From positions 4,222-68,221 of the forward strand of contig JAJSAE010000075.1 in NCBI GenBank assembly GCA_024281315.1: 64,000 nt of DNA. The letters are read 5' to 3'. Positions within the stretch are counted from its first letter, which is position 1. Every line of letters begins with the position of its first letter. The stretch comes from an archaeon. GTDB lineage: Archaea > Thermoplasmatota > Thermoplasmata > JAJSAE01. Shown here one piece after another: positions 6,021-37,580 of the stretch. Below the pieces are notes generated by a model that worked only from the letters and a program-made list of their open reading frames with translations, did no database searches and was not told where the DNA came from. A program made the position numbers and the translations under genes.

Positions 6021-9000
6021 GTGATAATTATGGCAAAGATGCCCAAGATAAGAGCAGATAAAGAATCAAAAACGGTGGAAAAAGGACACAGGCCCCCGTT
6101 CGCCGGCCCGGTCTCTCAATGGCTGGCCGATAACTGGGGAACCCTGCTCCTGATGTTGACAATAGTCGGAATCGCCTTCTTCCTGAGGACATATTTCGGC
6201 TTCGGTCCCGCAACCCAGAACGGCTTTCTCGTATCTGGCGGGTCTGATTCCTACTATCACAAGAGAATCATAGACTATGCTCTCTCCACCGGGCATCAAC
6301 TCTTTCAGGACCCTCTTATCAATTATCCGTTGAGCACGAGGAACCCGAGGCCTCCTCTCTTTGTCTGGAGTAGTGTCATACTGGGCTATATATTCTCCCC
6401 TCTTGTAGGGAGTGTTGATGTTGCCACATGGTATGCATTCCTCTTTAACACGGCTTTCTGGGGCTCTCTGACCGTTATACCCGTCTATTTCATTACAAAG
6501 GAGTCTTTTGGCAAAAAGGCCGGGTTCATCGCCGCATTCCTGCTGGCTATAATGCCAGGCCATATTGAAAGAAGCGTATTCAGTAATGCTGACCACGACG
6601 CCATGGTGCAGTTCTTTGTGGTTCTATCGTTCTTCTTCCTTTTAAAGGCTCTCAAGACCATAAACGGTTCCAGATGGGTAAAGGACTGGAAGAAAAAGGA
6701 TAATGTAATTGACGGCTTGAAGTCCTACTTCGCTGCCAACCGCACCTCTCTTCTTTATTCCATGATGGCTGCCCTCTCCCTCTCCGCAATTGCGATGATA
6801 TGGAAGGGTTTCTCCTATGTTGTGGTTATCATCCTTGTCTACTATCTGGTGGACCTCATCATAAGCCGGTTTAAGAACAGGGATACGCTGGGAAGCACCA
6901 TGGTACTCGCAGTTTCTCTGAGCATGTTCTTCCTGCTGATATTCCCCATATACCTTAATGCCCACATTGTAAAGACATGGTATGATGTTCCGCTTCTCAT
7001 GTTCCTCGGCCTTCTGTTCATAGGGGTGATATTCACGGTGACGCGCGATTACCCTTGGACACTGGTATTCGGAATTTTCCTTATTGTGATGTCTCTCGGA
7101 TATCTCATATTTATGGTTCTACTCCCCTCCATAGGTGAGGCGATTCTTAGCGGGCAGGGCTATCTGGTTCAGAGCAAGCTGTATACCACGATTTCCGAGG
7201 CTCAGGCTCCAGGATTCAGCCACTTGGCAATGTCATTCGGCATGGTCAGTTTCTATCTGGCATTTATCGGTATTGCATGGGCTGCAATAAAGATTCCCAA
7301 GAAGGCCAGTGCGGACTTTATTTTCGTTGTTGTATGGGTGGCTGTGGCAATCTACATGGCCACTTCCGCCGGTCGTTTCGTATTCAATGCGTCTCCCGCC
7401 TTTGCTATAGCCTCCGGCTGGATACTTGCGATGGTTATAGAAGCGCTACACCTGCCCGAGATAAAGAGAAACAGTCGGGGATTTGACTGGAAACACCCGT
7501 GGCCTACCATAAAAAAGGCCATAAAGGTCCGTCATGTTATGGGAGTTATTTTCGTAGCTTTCATGATAATCCTCCCTAATGTCTGGTTTGCAGTGGATGC
7601 AGGCATTCCGTATGAAGTGAAAAGGACATACGATAACCAGATAAATGCCACCCTTCCGTCGTTTATCGCTTCGCCTAACCGCCCTGCCAACAGCATGTGG
7701 TACCTCGGAGCATTCGGTTATTCTCTCCCTCTGAATTCCAACTATTGGCCGGCAGCATGGCGGTGGTTTTCGTCTCAGGATGCCAATATATATCCCGAAG
7801 CAGACCGACCAGCATTCGTAAGCTGGTGGGACTACGGTTTCGAGGCGGCTCAGGAAGGACATCACCCCACGGTGGCGGATAACTTCCAGAACGGATATCA
7901 ATGGGCGGGAAATGTTATAACCGCACAGAACGAAAGCGAGACCATTGCGCTGTTCGAGGGAAGGATAATTGAAACCGCTGTTTTATATGGTGAGAAGCCA
8001 GAGGGCCGTACGGTCATGCCTAACATGAATCCGATTACACTGGAGCAGATAAGCGCATTGATGGATAAGTACGGTATTGACACCCAGAGAGTGATTGATA
8101 TAATAAACAATCCGCAGAATTATGTGGATGTCGTGCTTGAGAACCCAGATGTATACGGCTATTATAACTACGATCTGTCTCCAATTAATGCCAAGTATGC
8201 CATGCTTAAGGTGGAGCTCTCCAAAATTGGGGAGCAGAAAGAGGTGTGGATGTACAACGAGCTTCGCGAACTCACTGGCGACAGCATACAATACTTCGCC
8301 ATAGATTCCAGATTATTTCCATTTGATGCCAGATCCACCGGCATTTTCTATGCGCCCGTAAAACTCTCCGACAGAAGAATTGATAACGGGACAAGAAATC
8401 CCATTGATTTCTATGACATAAAGGCGGTGGATGAGTACGGCAAGGAACATGCACTCAACGAACAGCTGGATCCCAAACTCAAGATAACCTCGTACCAGAT
8501 ACATTACAAAGACATGTTCTACAACTCCATGCTCTATCGTTCCTACATCGGATACAGTGCACAAGATCTGGGGCAGGCGGATGACACCAGCATCCCCGGT
8601 CTTTCCGGCTCTCTTCAGCAACAGCGCCCCATGCAGGCCTGGAATATGAGCCATTTCAAACTGGTATATGTTACTGCGTACTACAATCCATATCCTTCGG
8701 ATCAGGTGAGGGACCATCCTGAGGCATGGACTGCTGTTTCTTACAATGATGCGGCCAAATATCAGCAGGAAATAAAGGCAGGCAACATGACAGGTGTGGT
8801 GGACATGACTCCTGGCTCCGGGTTGAAACAGGGGGTTGTCTTTGTAAAGTACTATGACGGAGCATTGATTAACGGCACAGTTAAGATGGATACCGGCACC
8901 CCCGTCCCCGGTGTACGCGTAACGGTACTGGATGAGTACGGGATTCCTCACGCCTCCACCATCTCCGATGATGCGGGGCGCTATTCTCTTGTCTCTGTTG

Positions 9001-27224: not shown

Positions 27225-27269
27225 ACCTCAGAAAAACAATAATAAATAAAGGAAAGGGATTTCAGGGTC

Positions 27270-28619
27270 TTAAACGACCCTCTTTTTCACAACTTTCTTG
27301 ACGGCTATCGGAGGCTTGACCACCTTCTTTTCCTTCTCTTTCTCCTTCTCGCCGCCTTTCAGTTCGAAACCGCAGGCGTAGCATATCTCCGCATCCTTGC
27401 TGATCATTGTTCCGCAGTTGGGGCACGGCATCTCGTCGGATTCCTCTTCGCCGCCCGCTTCTTCTTCGGAAGCGCCGCCTTTCAGTTCGAAACCGCAGGC
27501 ATAGCATATCTCCGCATCCTTGCTGATCATTGTTCCGCAGTTGGGGCACGGCATCTCGTCTGATTCCTCCTCGGATGTCTCCGGCTCGGGGGATGTCTCT
27601 TCAGCGGCCTCCTCCTTTGCCTCTTCCTCTCCACCCTTGAGGTTGTATCCGCAGGCGTAGCATATCTCCGCATCCTTACTCACGATTGTTCCGCAGTTTG
27701 GACAGGGCATCTCGTCTGATTCCTCTTCGGATGTCTCCGGTTCGGGGGGTGCCTCTTCAGCGGCCCCCTCCGGGGCCTCTTTTTCGGCTTCCTCTTCAGC
27801 TTTCTCTTCTTCGGGTGCCGCCTCGGGTTCCGGTTCGGGGACACTGACCTCTTTAACCTCAACCTCTGGGATATCGATGGAAGGGGCCTCTACGGGCTCC
27901 ATATCAGGAAGTTCCACGGCCTGAACCTCTCCCTTCAGCGACTCCTCATGGGCAAGAACCTGCTTCTCCTTCTCAAGGAGTTCCTTCTCGTCGGTCACTA
28001 GTTTTTCTCTGGCCGCCGTAAGTTTCTCCTCCTCTTCGAGGATGACCCTTTCGTGGGAAACAAGTTCCTCCTGCTTTGTTTTCAGGGAATTGAGCAGTTC
28101 CGCAAGCTCCTCGTTCATGCGGGATATTGCCTCCATTCTTTCGAGGATACCCTTTCTTTTCTCGGAGATCTCTTTCTCCATAAAGACCACGGATTCCATT
28201 CTGGTGCCGATCTCCTCTTCTCTCTGAATAATCGCCTTCTCTCTTCCCATGAGCGCCTTTTCTCTCTCCACCACGGAGTTTTCCTTGGCGGCTACTGCTT
28301 CTTTCATGGAATTGATGCCTTTTAACTTTGAGTTTAACTCTTCCACCTTGGAGTCGATTTCGGCCTTTTTCTCTTCTAGAATCTTCTTTGCCTCGTCAAT
28401 CTCCTCCATCTTGCTGCGGTACTCGCTCTCGAGAGTTTCGGCCCTCTTCTCCTTTTCCGCAACAGATTGCTCTCTCGACTCCAGTTCGGCCTTCCTCTCG
28501 CGGAGTTCCGCCTCTGCACGAGCAATCTCTTCCTTCTTTTCCTTGACCTCTCGCTCCTGTTCTTTAAGGGATTCCAGCTGCTTTTGCATCTGGTCCCAGA
28601 ATGATTCGCCTTCTGCCAT
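27270..28619 (-). CDS. coiled-coil protein with three tandem C-terminal Zn-ribbon modules and KK-rich tail
   Basis: 449 aa. The N-terminal ~280 aa are E/K/L-rich coiled coil. Three repeats of DEMPCPNCGT(I/M)(V/I)SKDAEICYACG(Y/F)(N/E)LKGG, then KEKEKEKKVVKPPIAVKKVVKKRVV. Confidence 0.6.
   Translation of the reverse strand: MAEGESFWDQMQKQLESLKEQEREVKEKKEEIARAEAELRERKAELESREQSVAEKEKRAETLESEYRSKMEEIDEAKKILEEKKAEIDSKVEELNSKLKGINSMKEAVAAKENSVVEREKALMGREKAIIQREEEIGTRMESVVFMEKEISEKRKGILERMEAISRMNEELAELLNSLKTKQEELVSHERVILEEEEKLTAAREKLVTDEKELLEKEKQVLAHEESLKGEVQAVELPDMEPVEAPSIDIPEVEVKEVSVPEPEPEAAPEEEKAEEEAEKEAPEGAAEEAPPEPETSEEESDEMPCPNCGTIVSKDAEICYACGYNLKGGEEEAKEEAAEETSPEPETSEEESDEMPCPNCGTMISKDAEICYACGFELKGGASEEEAGGEEESDEMPCPNCGTMISKDAEICYACGFELKGGEKEKEKEKKVVKPPIAVKKVVKKRVV
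27349..27790. repeat. three tandem ~120-145-nt direct repeats encoding the Zn-ribbon modules
   Basis: Copies 1 and 2 (about 27349-27470 and 27472-27600) are nearly identical over more than 100 nt (gccgcctttcagttcgaaaccgcaggc(g/a)tagcatatctccgcatccttgctgatcattgttccgcagttggggcacggcatctcgtc...). Copy 3 is more diverged but shares its 3' segment (catctcgtctgattcct...ggatgtctccgg.tcggggg) with copy 2. Confidence 0.8.
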
Positions 28620-28741: not shown

Positions 28742-29440
28742 CTACTCGAATATCGGGCCGAGGACCCTTATGCCCCCCTTGCCCACCTCTATTGCGTGCT
28801 TCTCCATGCTGTGCTGGGATGCCCTCATCTTCTCCACCTGAAGATATCTGGTGAGTTTTCCCCTGCTCCTGTCAAGCCCCAGAAGAATTATGCCGTCCAC
28901 AAGGAAGCCCTCGTTTCCGAGGAGTTGGGACGGTTCTCCGGGAATTCTCTCCATTATCACAAAGGAATAAAGGTTGTTTTCTCTCAGCATCTTGAAGAAG
29001 TAGAACATCTTCTTTCTCATGTCCTCTTCATGCTCCATTAGAGAGTAAATGGCGCCGAGAGAATCGAGTGCGAATATGGAGAACTGGTCCTTCTTTTTCT
29101 TCTTGAAGTGAACAATCATCTTCTCTATGAACTGAAGATAATCCGTGCCCTCGTCGTCAACCACGGCATCAATGTCTCTCAGGTCGGTAAAGTCCGATAT
29201 CTGCATGTTTCGGGTGAGTTTTACCCCGAGGCTCTTCATGTTCGTGAGGTGGCTGTCCACTGTTTCTTCGAGGGTGGTATACAGGCCGAACTCTCCGGTC
29301 GCATCCAGATACCTGGACATGAGCGTATACACGAAACTGGTCTTCATGGAGCCGGGGGGGCCTGTAATCAGGATAACCTTCGGTTTGCCGATATCCGTTT
29401 TGAATATCTTGTCGAGTCCTTCTATGGAATTCTTGAACAT
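28742..29440 (-). CDS. KaiC-like/RecA-superfamily ATPase (short, single domain)
   Basis: 232 aa. Walker A ILITGPPGSMKTSF, Walker B-like SIFALDSLG. KaiC-like profile. Confidence 0.7.
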   Translation of the reverse strand: MFKNSIEGLDKIFKTDIGKPKVILITGPPGSMKTSFVYTLMSRYLDATGEFGLYTTLEETVDSHLTNMKSLGVKLTRNMQISDFTDLRDIDAVVDDEGTDYLQFIEKMIVHFKKKKKDQFSIFALDSLGAIYSLMEHEEDMRKKMFYFFKMLRENNLYSFVIMERIPGEPSQLLGNEGFLVDGIILLGLDRSRGKLTRYLQVEKMRASQHSMEKHAIEVGKGGIRVLGPIFE

Positions 29441-29487: not shown

Positions 29488-32002
29488 TTATAAACCTTGC
29501 CCGCCAGCCGCCTCCGGTTCGTTCTCTGTCTTGACCTCATCTTCATCCGCTTTTTCGGCCAGTCTGGCCACAGCGCTTACCTTGTCGCCGCTTCTGAGCC
29601 TCATTATCCTTACGCCCTGCGTTGCTCTGCCCATGACCCGCAGGTCCGCAACCGACATTCTTATTATCATTCCTTCTTTGCTGGTGACTATAAGTTCGTC
29701 GCTGGGGGTGACCTCCAGAACAGCTTTGACCGGTCCGTTCCTCTCGTTCACCTTTATCGTGATAACGCCCTGAGAGCCGCGGTGCGTCCTCCTGTAATCC
29801 CTCACCCACGATAGTTTTCCATAGCCGTTTTCAGTAATTGTGAGAAGTATGGACGAATCATTACCGGTGGATGTGCTGACCACCTCGTCGTCTTTGCGCA
29901 GTCGTATTCCTATGACTCCGTGAGAATTCCTGCCCATTGGCCTCATTTCGCTCTCGTGGAATCTCGCGGCCTTTCCGTACTTTGTGGCTATAAGAACATC
30001 CCGGTCTCCGTCGGTAATTCTGGTGTCTATGAGTTCGTCGTCATCCCAGAGCGCAATAGCGATAATGCCCGTGGTTCTCGGTCTTGAATACGCCTCTAAT
30101 GGAGTCTTCTTCACTCTCCCTTTCTTCGTGGTGAAGAGCAGGAACCTGTCTCCGGTGAATTCTCTGACATGGATTGTGTTGACTATGGCCTCCCCCTTCT
30201 CCAACCTCGGCAGAAGATTCACTATGGGACGACCTTTGGCGTGCCTCCCAGCTTCCGGAATTCTGTAGGCTTTTAGCCAGTACACCCTTCCGCGGTTGCT
30301 GAAGAACATGATGTAACTGTGCGATGAGGTAACGAACATATCCACCACATCGTCCTCCTCCTTGGTTGTCATTCCCTTGAGCCCGACTCCGCCCCTTCTC
30401 TGCTGGTGGTAGGTGTCCACTGGCATCCTTTTTATATAGCCGGTTCGGGTGATGGTGATTACCACATCCTCCTCCGGTATCAGGTCTTCAATATCCATAT
30501 CTATCTCCTGATCAACAATATCCGTCTTCCTTCCGTCGCCGAACTTTTCTTTGAGGGCAATCAGGTCCTCCTTTATCATGGCCAGAATCCTCTCTTCCGT
30601 TGCGAGTATGTCCTTATAATCCTCTATCTTTTTCTGAACCTCGTCGTACTCCGCCTTGACAGCCTCCCTCTCCATGCCAGTGAGCTTCTGCAAGCGCATG
30701 TCGAGGATTGCCTTGGCCTGAACCTCTTTCAGGAGGAAGCGGGAGATAAGCGCAAGTTTTGCTTCGTCCACCGTCTTCGCCTTTCTTATGAGCCTTATGA
30801 CCTCGTCCAGATTGTCAAGTGCAATGAGGATACCGTCAAGTATGACAGCCCTGTCCTCCGCTTTTCTGAGAAGATACTGCGTCCTTCTGGTGATAACATC
30901 CTTCCTGTGCTCTATGTAGTGATGAATGAGAGATTTGAGGGGGAGTGTCTTCGGCTCGTTATTCACAAGGGCAAGATTGTTTATTCCGAATGTGGTCTCC
31001 AGCTGGGTGTGGGCGAATAGCTGATTCAGAACAATCTCCTCCATGACATCCTTCCTCAGTTCGATAACAATCCTCATGCCGGAGCGGTCCGATTCGTCCC
31101 GCAGGTCGGTTATTCCGTCTATCACCCTATCCCTCACCAATTTCGCAATGGCCTCCATGAGATTGGACTTGTTCACCATGTACGGTATTTCATTAACGAT
31201 AATTCTCCGCTTCCCGTTCTTCAACTCCTCTATATTCGTCTTTGCCCGAACCTTTATCGTGCCCCTGCCAGTGCTGTATGCGCGAAGTATGCCGCTTCTT
31301 CCATATATTGTTCCCACGGTGGGGAAATCCGGTCCGTTTATCACGGACATAAGGTCCAGAAGAGGAATTTCCGGGTCGTCAATCTGCATGATTATGGCAT
31401 CCACGACCTCGCTGAGGTTGTGCGGGGCCATGTTTGTGGCCATTCCAACCGCTATACCCGACGAGCCGTTCACAAGAAGATTGGGGAGGACAGCGGGGAG
31501 AACCGTAGGCTCCTTCAAACTGCCGTCGAAGTTGTCCACAAAATCCACGGTATCTTTGTCTATATCCTCCAGCATGGTGGCCGCAATCTTACCCAGCCTG
31601 CACTCGGTATATCTCATGGCCGCAGCCCTGTCACCGTCCACCGAGCCAAAGTTTCCCTGCCCGTCAACAAGCGTGTACCTGAGAGAAAACGGCTGAGCCA
31701 TCCTCACAAGGGAGTCATAGACCGCACTGTCACCGTGGGGGTGGTACTTACCGAGAACCTCTCCCACAACCCTTGCTGACTTCTTGTACGGCCTGCTGTG
31801 TATGAGGCCCATGTCGTTCATGGCGTAAAGGATTCTCCTGTGAACAGGTTTCAGGCCGTCCCTCACATCGGGCAGAGCGCGGCCAACAATGACGCTCATG
31901 GCGTAGTCTATGTAGGCCTTCTTCATCTCGTGCTCCACCGGCTCGTTAAGTATCGTCTCGCCGGAGGGGGCGGTCTGGTCCGTGTTATCATCGTCTGGCA
32001 TA

Positions 32003-32028
<26 letters not shown>
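29488..32028 (-). CDS. gyrA: DNA gyrase subunit A
   Basis: 846 aa. [44 protein letters not shown] and the AAMRYTE catalytic Tyr region, plus C-terminal beta-pinwheel repeats. The true start may be an internal Met (MIDM/MPDD), which would reduce the overlap with the RM gene. Confidence 0.95.

Positions 32029-37580
<5,552 letters not shown>

Follow-up and report, generated by a model that had tools for sequence, protein, structure and literature searches.

A tandem array of three zinc ribbons within a coiled-coil protein gene of a Thermoplasmata archaeon, with evidence of recent DNA exchange between two of its units

The DNA examined here is a 64,000-nucleotide stretch (the window) of contig JAJSAE010000075.1 from an archaeon of the Thermoplasmata. 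In the 3′ third of a minus-strand gene encoding a 449-amino-acid (aa) protein, it carries a genuine in-frame tandem DNA repeat made up of three modules, each consisting of an acidic linker and a C4 zinc ribbon. The modules are designated N (first), M (middle), and C (last) in protein order and correspond, respectively, to copies 3, 2, and 1 of a preliminary description of this DNA, made by eye from the sequence. M and C are nearly identical over ~100 nt, and their identity at silent sites indicates recent gene conversion or unequal crossing-over between them, not selection alone. In the account that we favor and regard as probably correct, this ~100-nt M/C tract was recently homogenized, an older event relates N and M, the ribbons are under purifying selection, and the protein would be an adaptor linked to the KaiC-like ATPase encoded next to it.

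Geometry of the repeat

Tandem Repeats Finder reported two overlapping arrays, one with a period of 123 nt (27350 to 27573; 1.8 copies, 97% matches, score 427) and the other with a period of 156 nt (27493 to 27781; 1.9 copies, 87% matches, score 466), and the repeat search returned a single three-copy family with spacings of 123 and 156. The equivalent (k = 12) of the self dot-plot proposed as a check showed off-diagonals at 123, 156, and 279. In an ungapped comparison, copies 1 (27350 to 27449) and 2 (27473 to 27572) were identical at 97 of 100 nt, bearing out the near-identical intragenic tandem repeats of the preliminary description; the mismatches, at positions 27378, 27438, and 27447, are all three synonymous. 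The tract has abrupt edges on both sides, with 20-nt windows lying wholly outside it identical at 11/20 and 8/20 positions. The longest exact direct repeat of the window measures 59 nt (27379 to 27437 = 27502 to 27560), compared to 14 to 15 nt in shuffled sequence, and all exact direct repeats of ≥20 nt in the window lie inside the zinc-ribbon array. Both periods are divisible by 3 and the reading frame is intact across the array. A noncoding repeat array (CRISPR-like or regulatory) was ruled out because the repeats are in frame, have periods that are multiples of 3, and encode Pfam domains. No RNA family was matched in an Rfam scan of the window, nor were any tRNAs found in it.

Copy 3 has been described as a mosaic, with a diverged 5′ half and a 3′ portion of ~60 nt common to copy 2 but not to copy 1. 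The latter observation held: the 3′ ~60 nt of copy 3 (27714 to 27776) match copy 2 (27558 to 27620) at 53/60 positions, whereas the comparison with copy 1 gave 15/20 and then 9/20. The divergence of the 5′ half was overstated, strong divergence being confined to the first ~20 nt, and the zinc-ribbon core of copy 3 is ~85% identical to copies 1 and 2 alike. In the older, period-156 register, 27493 to 27620 and 27649 to 27776 are ~87% identical. The mosaic appears to reflect two events of different ages, registers, and breakpoints, in line with the recombination initially proposed.

Evidence for recent exchange between the middle and last units

Within a 25-codon core, M and C agree at 99% of all positions and at 96% (24/25) of third positions, as against a third-position identity of ~60 to 64% to the first unit and 40 to 60% to the units of the nearest relative, locus L001 (= L081). 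When 34 codons were considered, M and C shared 95/102 nt and 30/34 third positions, compared to 19 to 20/34 third positions for N versus M and C and 14 to 21/34 in the six comparisons between window and L001 units, even though the peptides are nearly the same. M and C were also mutually nearest among 144 units from 68 genes. L001 represents another species, with 97% aa identity to the window in the KaiC-like protein and ~76 to 82% nt identity in the coiled-coil/zinc-ribbon gene. Because selection on the peptide cannot produce such a silent-site pattern, DNA appears to have passed between units since the window and L001 lineages separated. The array combines the hallmarks of concerted evolution, i.e., paralogous similarity exceeding orthologous similarity at synonymous sites, an abrupt tract, and a unit number that varies between lineages.

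The window and L001 lineages each have three ribbons, with the last two units spaced by 41 aa in the window and 44 aa in L001. The prefix of the last unit is EESDEMPCP in the window versus GGDEEIPCP in L001, and the linker differs too. Within the linker separating M from C in the window, the 5′ part (ASEEEAGG) resembles the G/E/D-rich linker of L001, suggesting that the third unit is orthologous in both. Across the family, the last unit has an EI prefix in 77/113 orthologues and an EM prefix in 11/113.

Ribbon number across the family

Orthologous loci were collected using the KaiC-like protein as a probe, with 80 genome loci and 80 metagenome loci fetched; the genome loci all came from Thermoplasmata, Methanomassiliicoccales, and related metagenome-assembled genomes. 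In 117 distinct orthologues of the 449-aa protein, including that of the window, the number of ribbons was two in 104, three in 10, and one in 3, and in a neighbor-joining tree of the KaiC-like proteins the three-ribbon genes fell into at least five groups with two-ribbon genes between them. Two ribbons are therefore the usual state of the family as read from these sequences, the third having apparently been gained (or lost) repeatedly. The preliminary description considered repeat number probably variable between strains; the variation observed here is between lineages of the family. Exchange between units is seen repeatedly in the family: a unit pair with ≥95% identity over ≥60 nt was present in 6 of 114 multi-unit genes (those of the window, L001, L004, L007, L094, and L105), and one with ≥90% identity in 19 of the 114. 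In a distant clade (approximately L038 to L080), the two units are only 63 to 79% identical and each is nearest to the same-position unit of another genome, therefore representing stable orthologous positions.

Searches with the 449-aa protein itself yielded little. An exact look-up in public assemblies retrieved no record, a word-index homologue search gave only four matches, with low-complexity words saturating the candidates, and a metagenome scan confirmed no locus, the patterns used having included low-complexity ones such as EKEKEKEK. No sequence from the same species was found in the public assemblies and metagenomes searched, in which L001 and L081 were the only close relatives.

In one orthologue, L033:6421-7459 (= L121; Proteinoplasmatales SG8-5), the gene is split, with the coiled coil at 6421 to 7131 and the two ribbons plus tail in another frame at 7076 to 7459. 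This corresponds to a frameshift in the acidic low-complexity linker and may be either a real pseudogene or a sequencing or assembly error.

Proposed history of the array and alternative explanations

In the simplest history, which we propose, the window and L001 would have inherited three units from their common ancestor. N and M would be related through an older duplication or exchange, in a period-156 register comprising the upstream linker PEPETSEEESDEM and the ribbon. After the split from the L001 lineage, a tract of ~100 nt (EEESDEM, ribbon, FELKGG) would have been copied between M and C by nonreciprocal homologous recombination, probably as a gene conversion of C by M, with unequal crossing-over as the alternative, and purifying selection would keep each ribbon intact.

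An alternative scenario is that unequal crossing-over or replication slippage freshly duplicated a unit in tandem in the window lineage, raising the number from two to three independently of L001 and without any conversion. The head-to-tail period of 123 nt and the sharp edges fit a simple duplication, three-unit genes have arisen several times in the family, and M and C both carry an EM-type prefix. We nonetheless consider this scenario unlikely, since three units, almost identically spaced, are already found in the nearest relative, the ASEEEAGG part of the linker resembles its counterpart in L001, which suggests an orthologous third unit, and two independent gains would be required in sister lineages. 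Much less credible still is that old duplicates were held alike only by selection acting at the protein or codon-usage level. The ribbon is indeed strongly constrained, its Cys residues together with T404, A410, Y414, A415, and G417 being invariant across the family; however, this would leave unexplained the third positions, 96% identical between M and C, ~60% to a first unit encoding nearly the same peptide, and 40 to 60% to orthologous units, as well as an M/C identity that runs on into the unconstrained acidic linker and then ends abruptly. We regard this explanation as practically untenable.

The preliminary description also flagged the array as an assembly hazard, and a spurious expansion or a strain-variant chimera could in principle account for the third near-identical unit. 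Short-read metagenome assemblers can misresolve repeats, the contig of L084 breaks off partway through the second unit of an identical pair, and the linker of L033 (= L121) has the frameshift mentioned above. Against this, the copies of the window are told apart by three fixed, diagnostic differences, the array has unique flanks on both sides, the longest exact run is 59 nt, the frame is intact, and an independently assembled relative has three units as well. An enrichment of contig breaks in the repeat part was rejected once contigs ending earlier in the gene were counted: 11 break in the linker/zinc-ribbon part, 12 in the first 600 nt following the KaiC-like gene, and 2 over the remainder of the rod. 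The hazard is hence modest and an artefactual origin very improbable. Several related contigs (L084, L005, L010, L093, and L099) end inside the acidic linker or a ribbon unit.

Several points weigh against the account that we favor. The array is known from the assembly alone, and a single outgroup species underlies what is inferred on the direction of conversion and on any within-species polymorphism. The EM/EI prefixes mark a tendency and not a rule. The same end state would be reached if the middle unit had duplicated and the ancestral last unit had been lost. As to its functional part, this draws on gene adjacency and architecture only; the KaiC-like gene has no coiled-coil/zinc-ribbon neighbor in L009, L011, L032, L035, L037, L113, and L115, and, conversely, a distant homologue of the 449-aa protein, P0001 (L161:1445-3058), has no KaiC-like neighbor.

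Architecture of the 449-aa protein

The coordinates of the gene, its parts, and its neighbors are compiled in Table 1. The start codon is supported by a Shine-Dalgarno-like GGGGGA motif 7 nt upstream of the ATG and by conservation of the N terminus, MAEGESFWDQMQKQ, in L001. A sigma-70 promoter scan, not applicable to archaea, found nothing.

TABLE 1 Features of the zinc-ribbon gene and its surroundings (window coordinates)
Feature	Coordinates	Strand	Residues	Remarks
Coiled-coil/triple zinc-ribbon protein gene	27270..28619	-	449 aa + stop	Open reading frame; contains the repeat
Long helix, probable coiled-coil rod	27927..28601	-	7-231 (~225 residues)	AlphaFold2 single-sequence model and profile search
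Acidic Pro-rich disordered linker	27726..27926	-	232-298	Composition, pLDDT
Zinc ribbon N (first; copy 3)	27651..27704	-	306-323	CPNCGTIVSKDAEICYAC
Zinc ribbon M (middle; copy 2)	27495..27548	-	358-375	CPNCGTMISKDAEICYAC
Zinc ribbon C (last; copy 1)	27372..27425	-	399-416	CPNCGTMISKDAEICYAC
Young homogenized tract, last-unit side	27350..27449	-	391-424	EEESDEM + ribbon + FELKGG; 97/100 identity
Young homogenized tract, middle-unit side	27473..27572	-	350-383	Probable donor
Older period-156 register, middle-unit side	27493..27620	-		Ribbon core + upstream linker PEPETSEEESDEM
Older period-156 register, first-unit side	27649..27776	-		
Basic C-terminal tail	27273..27347	-	425-449	KEKEKEKKVVKPPIAVKKVVKKRVV
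95-codon Arg-rich open reading frame	27262..27549	- (same as gene), frame +2		By-product, not a gene; not conserved
Single-domain KaiC-like ATPase gene	28742..29440	-	232 aa	PF06745
gyrA	29488..32028	-		Pfam; 47 nt upstream of the KaiC-like gene

In an AlphaFold2 single-sequence model, residues 7 to 231 form a single helix with a predicted local distance difference test (pLDDT) score of >90, and a profile built from 35 orthologues matched only coiled-coil chains in the PDB (e.g., Spc110, ELKS, gp26, and CT398). The rod is followed by a linker with a pLDDT of <50, the segment scored (residues 236 to 298) containing 40% D+E and 12 Pro. Across orthologues this linker ranges from ~20 to >100 residues and its internal repeats vary widely; in some (L007:1520-2884, L027:6833-8158, and L028:2825-4132) it is a long tandem array with EEAPAEE repeated ~10 to 12 times.

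The ribbons, of the form CPNCGT(M/I)(I/V)SKDAEICYACG, occur three times with acidic linkers between them, and the CPNC-x10-CYAC pattern accordingly has three occurrences. The model depicts them as three beta-hairpin knuckles joined by disordered linkers, each unit having two short strands with a pLDDT of 75 to 84. Pfam matches were above the cutoffs for Zn_ribbon_3 (PF13248; 74.0 versus 27 bits, three stretches), DZR (PF12773; 66.6 versus 27.3 bits, two stretches), and Zn_Ribbon_1 (PF13240; 59.5 versus 25 bits, three stretches), in agreement with the duplicated zinc-ribbon units noted at the outset; Zn_ribbon_3 and DZR were matched in all 35 orthologues scanned. The three modules are C4 zinc ribbons, with zinc binding predicted from the sequence. 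Pfam and NCBIfam scans identified no family beyond zinc ribbons covering the rest of the protein, and a PDB sequence search no relative of the whole of it.

The protein closes with a basic tail, KKVVKPPIAVKKVVKKRVV, kept across the family. Essentially all orthologues have its motif (VKKVxKKRVV; in the distant clade, KKPQIFVKKIVKKK), and no other linear motif outside the ribbons is as well conserved; K442 and K445 are invariant in the orthologue alignment. Two readings of the tail were discarded: an amphipathic membrane-targeting helix, given the low helical hydrophobic moment (0.14 to 0.34), and a PIP-box in KKPQIFVKKIV, the Gln being absent in the window's clade.

The Arg-rich open reading frame that overlaps the array (27262 to 27549) had been described as an antisense by-product of the repeat. 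It does appear to be a by-product; it is not antisense, since it and the gene share the minus strand. Its frame +2 counterpart in L001 is open for only 39 codons, and the GAR-rich (Glu-codon-rich) region often lacks stops in frame +2 over long distances, the median run in 125 orthologues being 78 codons.

The KaiC-like neighbor and gene context

The KaiC-like gene is located 122 nt upstream of the 449-aa gene on the same strand. Its product matches PF06745 full-length (residues 4 to 227; 114.5 versus a cutoff of 26.6 bits) and has KaiC, PH0186, PH0284, and SSO2452 as PDB relatives. It falls below the NCBIfam equivalog cutoffs of thermo_KaiC_1 (62 versus 307 bits), KaiC_arch_3 (51 versus 249), KaiC_arch_4 (54 versus 248), and ArlH (21 versus 215). 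The Walker A motif is GPPGSMKT (residues 27 to 34) instead of the canonical GxxGxGK[ST]; the Met in place of the second Gly is found in 115/117 orthologues, and no variation occurs at the Walker B Asp (D126) or at E58/E59. In a PADLOC analysis, neither the 449-aa protein nor the KaiC-like ATPase was assigned to any defense-system family.

The gene directly downstream of the KaiC-like gene is a coiled-coil/zinc-ribbon orthologue in the great majority of the 160 loci (>100). The order gyrA, KaiC-like, coiled-coil/zinc-ribbon was observed in 39 of the 80 genome loci, among them the window, L001, and the distant Thermoplasmata clade (L040 to L080), and is absent from an intermediate clade (L002 to L039). 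Neighbors other than the KaiC-like gene and gyrA are not generally conserved. In the window, the usual gyrB-gyrA pair (gyrB, 35499 to 37412; gyrA, 29488 to 32028) is split by a gene for an Eco57I/MmeI-like type IIG restriction-modification enzyme of 1175 aa (32003 to 35530, minus strand) with Eco57I, N6_Mtase, TaqI_C, and HSDR_N domains.

In the distant homologue P0001, a coiled coil and a single ribbon with the family's ribbon signature are followed by a segment that by eye is SAP-type helix-turn-helix-like and by a second, different ribbon; a small Toprim-domain open reading frame lies just upstream of its gene.

Comparison with known systems

Poly-zinc-ribbon proteins (PF12773, PF13248, and PF13240) have the same CPxCG...CxxCG ribbon in tandem with low-complexity linkers; most of the best 152 matches of an exhaustive search carry at least three such ribbons and one carries 19. 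Unlike these proteins, that of the window joins its ribbons to a coiled-coil rod of ~225 residues and to a conserved basic tail, with a family signature, CGTMISxDAxMCYACG, and a genomic pairing with a KaiC-like ATPase. HP0958/CT398 (FlgZ-like; PDB 4ilo) has the same general plan, a C4 zinc ribbon placed after a coiled-coil rod. The family profile matches only the coiled coil of 4ilo (positions 45 to 203), weakly (E = 1.4e-4), and scans of the window protein and 35 orthologues returned no Pfam family corresponding to the HP0958/CT398 ribbon domain; partners and taxa also differ, and here one to three ribbons follow a long disordered linker. The small zinc-finger proteins HVO_0416 and HVO_2753 were rejected as equivalents, with 40.9 and 16.6 bits, respectively, versus a cutoff of 80 for each, the window protein being 449 aa long with a coiled coil.

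Bacterial surface proteins that carry repeats and the tandem zinc-finger arrays of eukaryotes are known for concerted evolution of their intragenic repeats through gene conversion or unequal crossing-over. The array of the window has in common with them a greater likeness between paralogues than between orthologues at silent sites, sharp tract edges, and a lineage-varying number of units. It differs in having only one to three units in the family, in a cytoplasmic archaeal protein, with no evidence of diversifying selection or phase variation.

The neighbor gene belongs with the archaeal single-domain KaiC-like ATPases (PH0186, PH0284, and SSO2452), judging from its full-length match to PF06745 and to those PDB chains. 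ArlH is a functional example of this group. Unlike the known members, the neighbor scores below every NCBIfam equivalog cutoff and has the conserved deviant GPPGSMKT. No description of the KaiC-like/coiled-coil-zinc-ribbon pair was found in the literature searched.

Significance

The repeat is a case of ordinary repeat evolution in an uncharacterized archaeal coiled-coil protein. Tandem arrays of such ribbons are common and intragenic concerted evolution is textbook knowledge; the specific gene pair and the conserved GPPGSMKT are, as far as we have checked, apparently undescribed. Gene adjacency and architecture, the only grounds for a functional reading, point to an acidic, elongated adaptor or scaffold (a "rod plus beads on a string") that would work with the adjacent KaiC-like ATPase, the ribbons being putative multivalent binding modules whose number (one to three) is changed by recombination. 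The strong conservation of ribbon surface residues (T404, A410, Y414, A415, and G417) is consistent with a specific ligand. More speculatively, and on balance doubtful at this stage, the GPPGSMKT KaiC-like ATPase and the coiled-coil/zinc-ribbon/basic-tail protein could constitute an undescribed two-component machine of Thermoplasmata, with ribbon number setting its valency and being tuned by intragenic recombination; it might be associated with the chromosome, given that the gyrB/gyrA-KaiC-like-coiled-coil/zinc-ribbon order recurs.

The array provides a clear, small case of intragenic concerted evolution, in which silent-site identity points to DNA exchange between modules after speciation, in a family with repeated module gains and losses. 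It also flags a spot where metagenome assembly and gene calling can err, as illustrated by the spurious overlapping open reading frame in the window and the linker frameshift in one relative. The gene pair is the more useful by-product of the analysis: a KaiC-like ATPase with an unusual P-loop coupled to a zinc-ribbon protein in >100 Thermoplasmata assemblies. If archaeal KaiC-like ATPases are signaling or assembly hubs, this pair would be a defined candidate for experiments.

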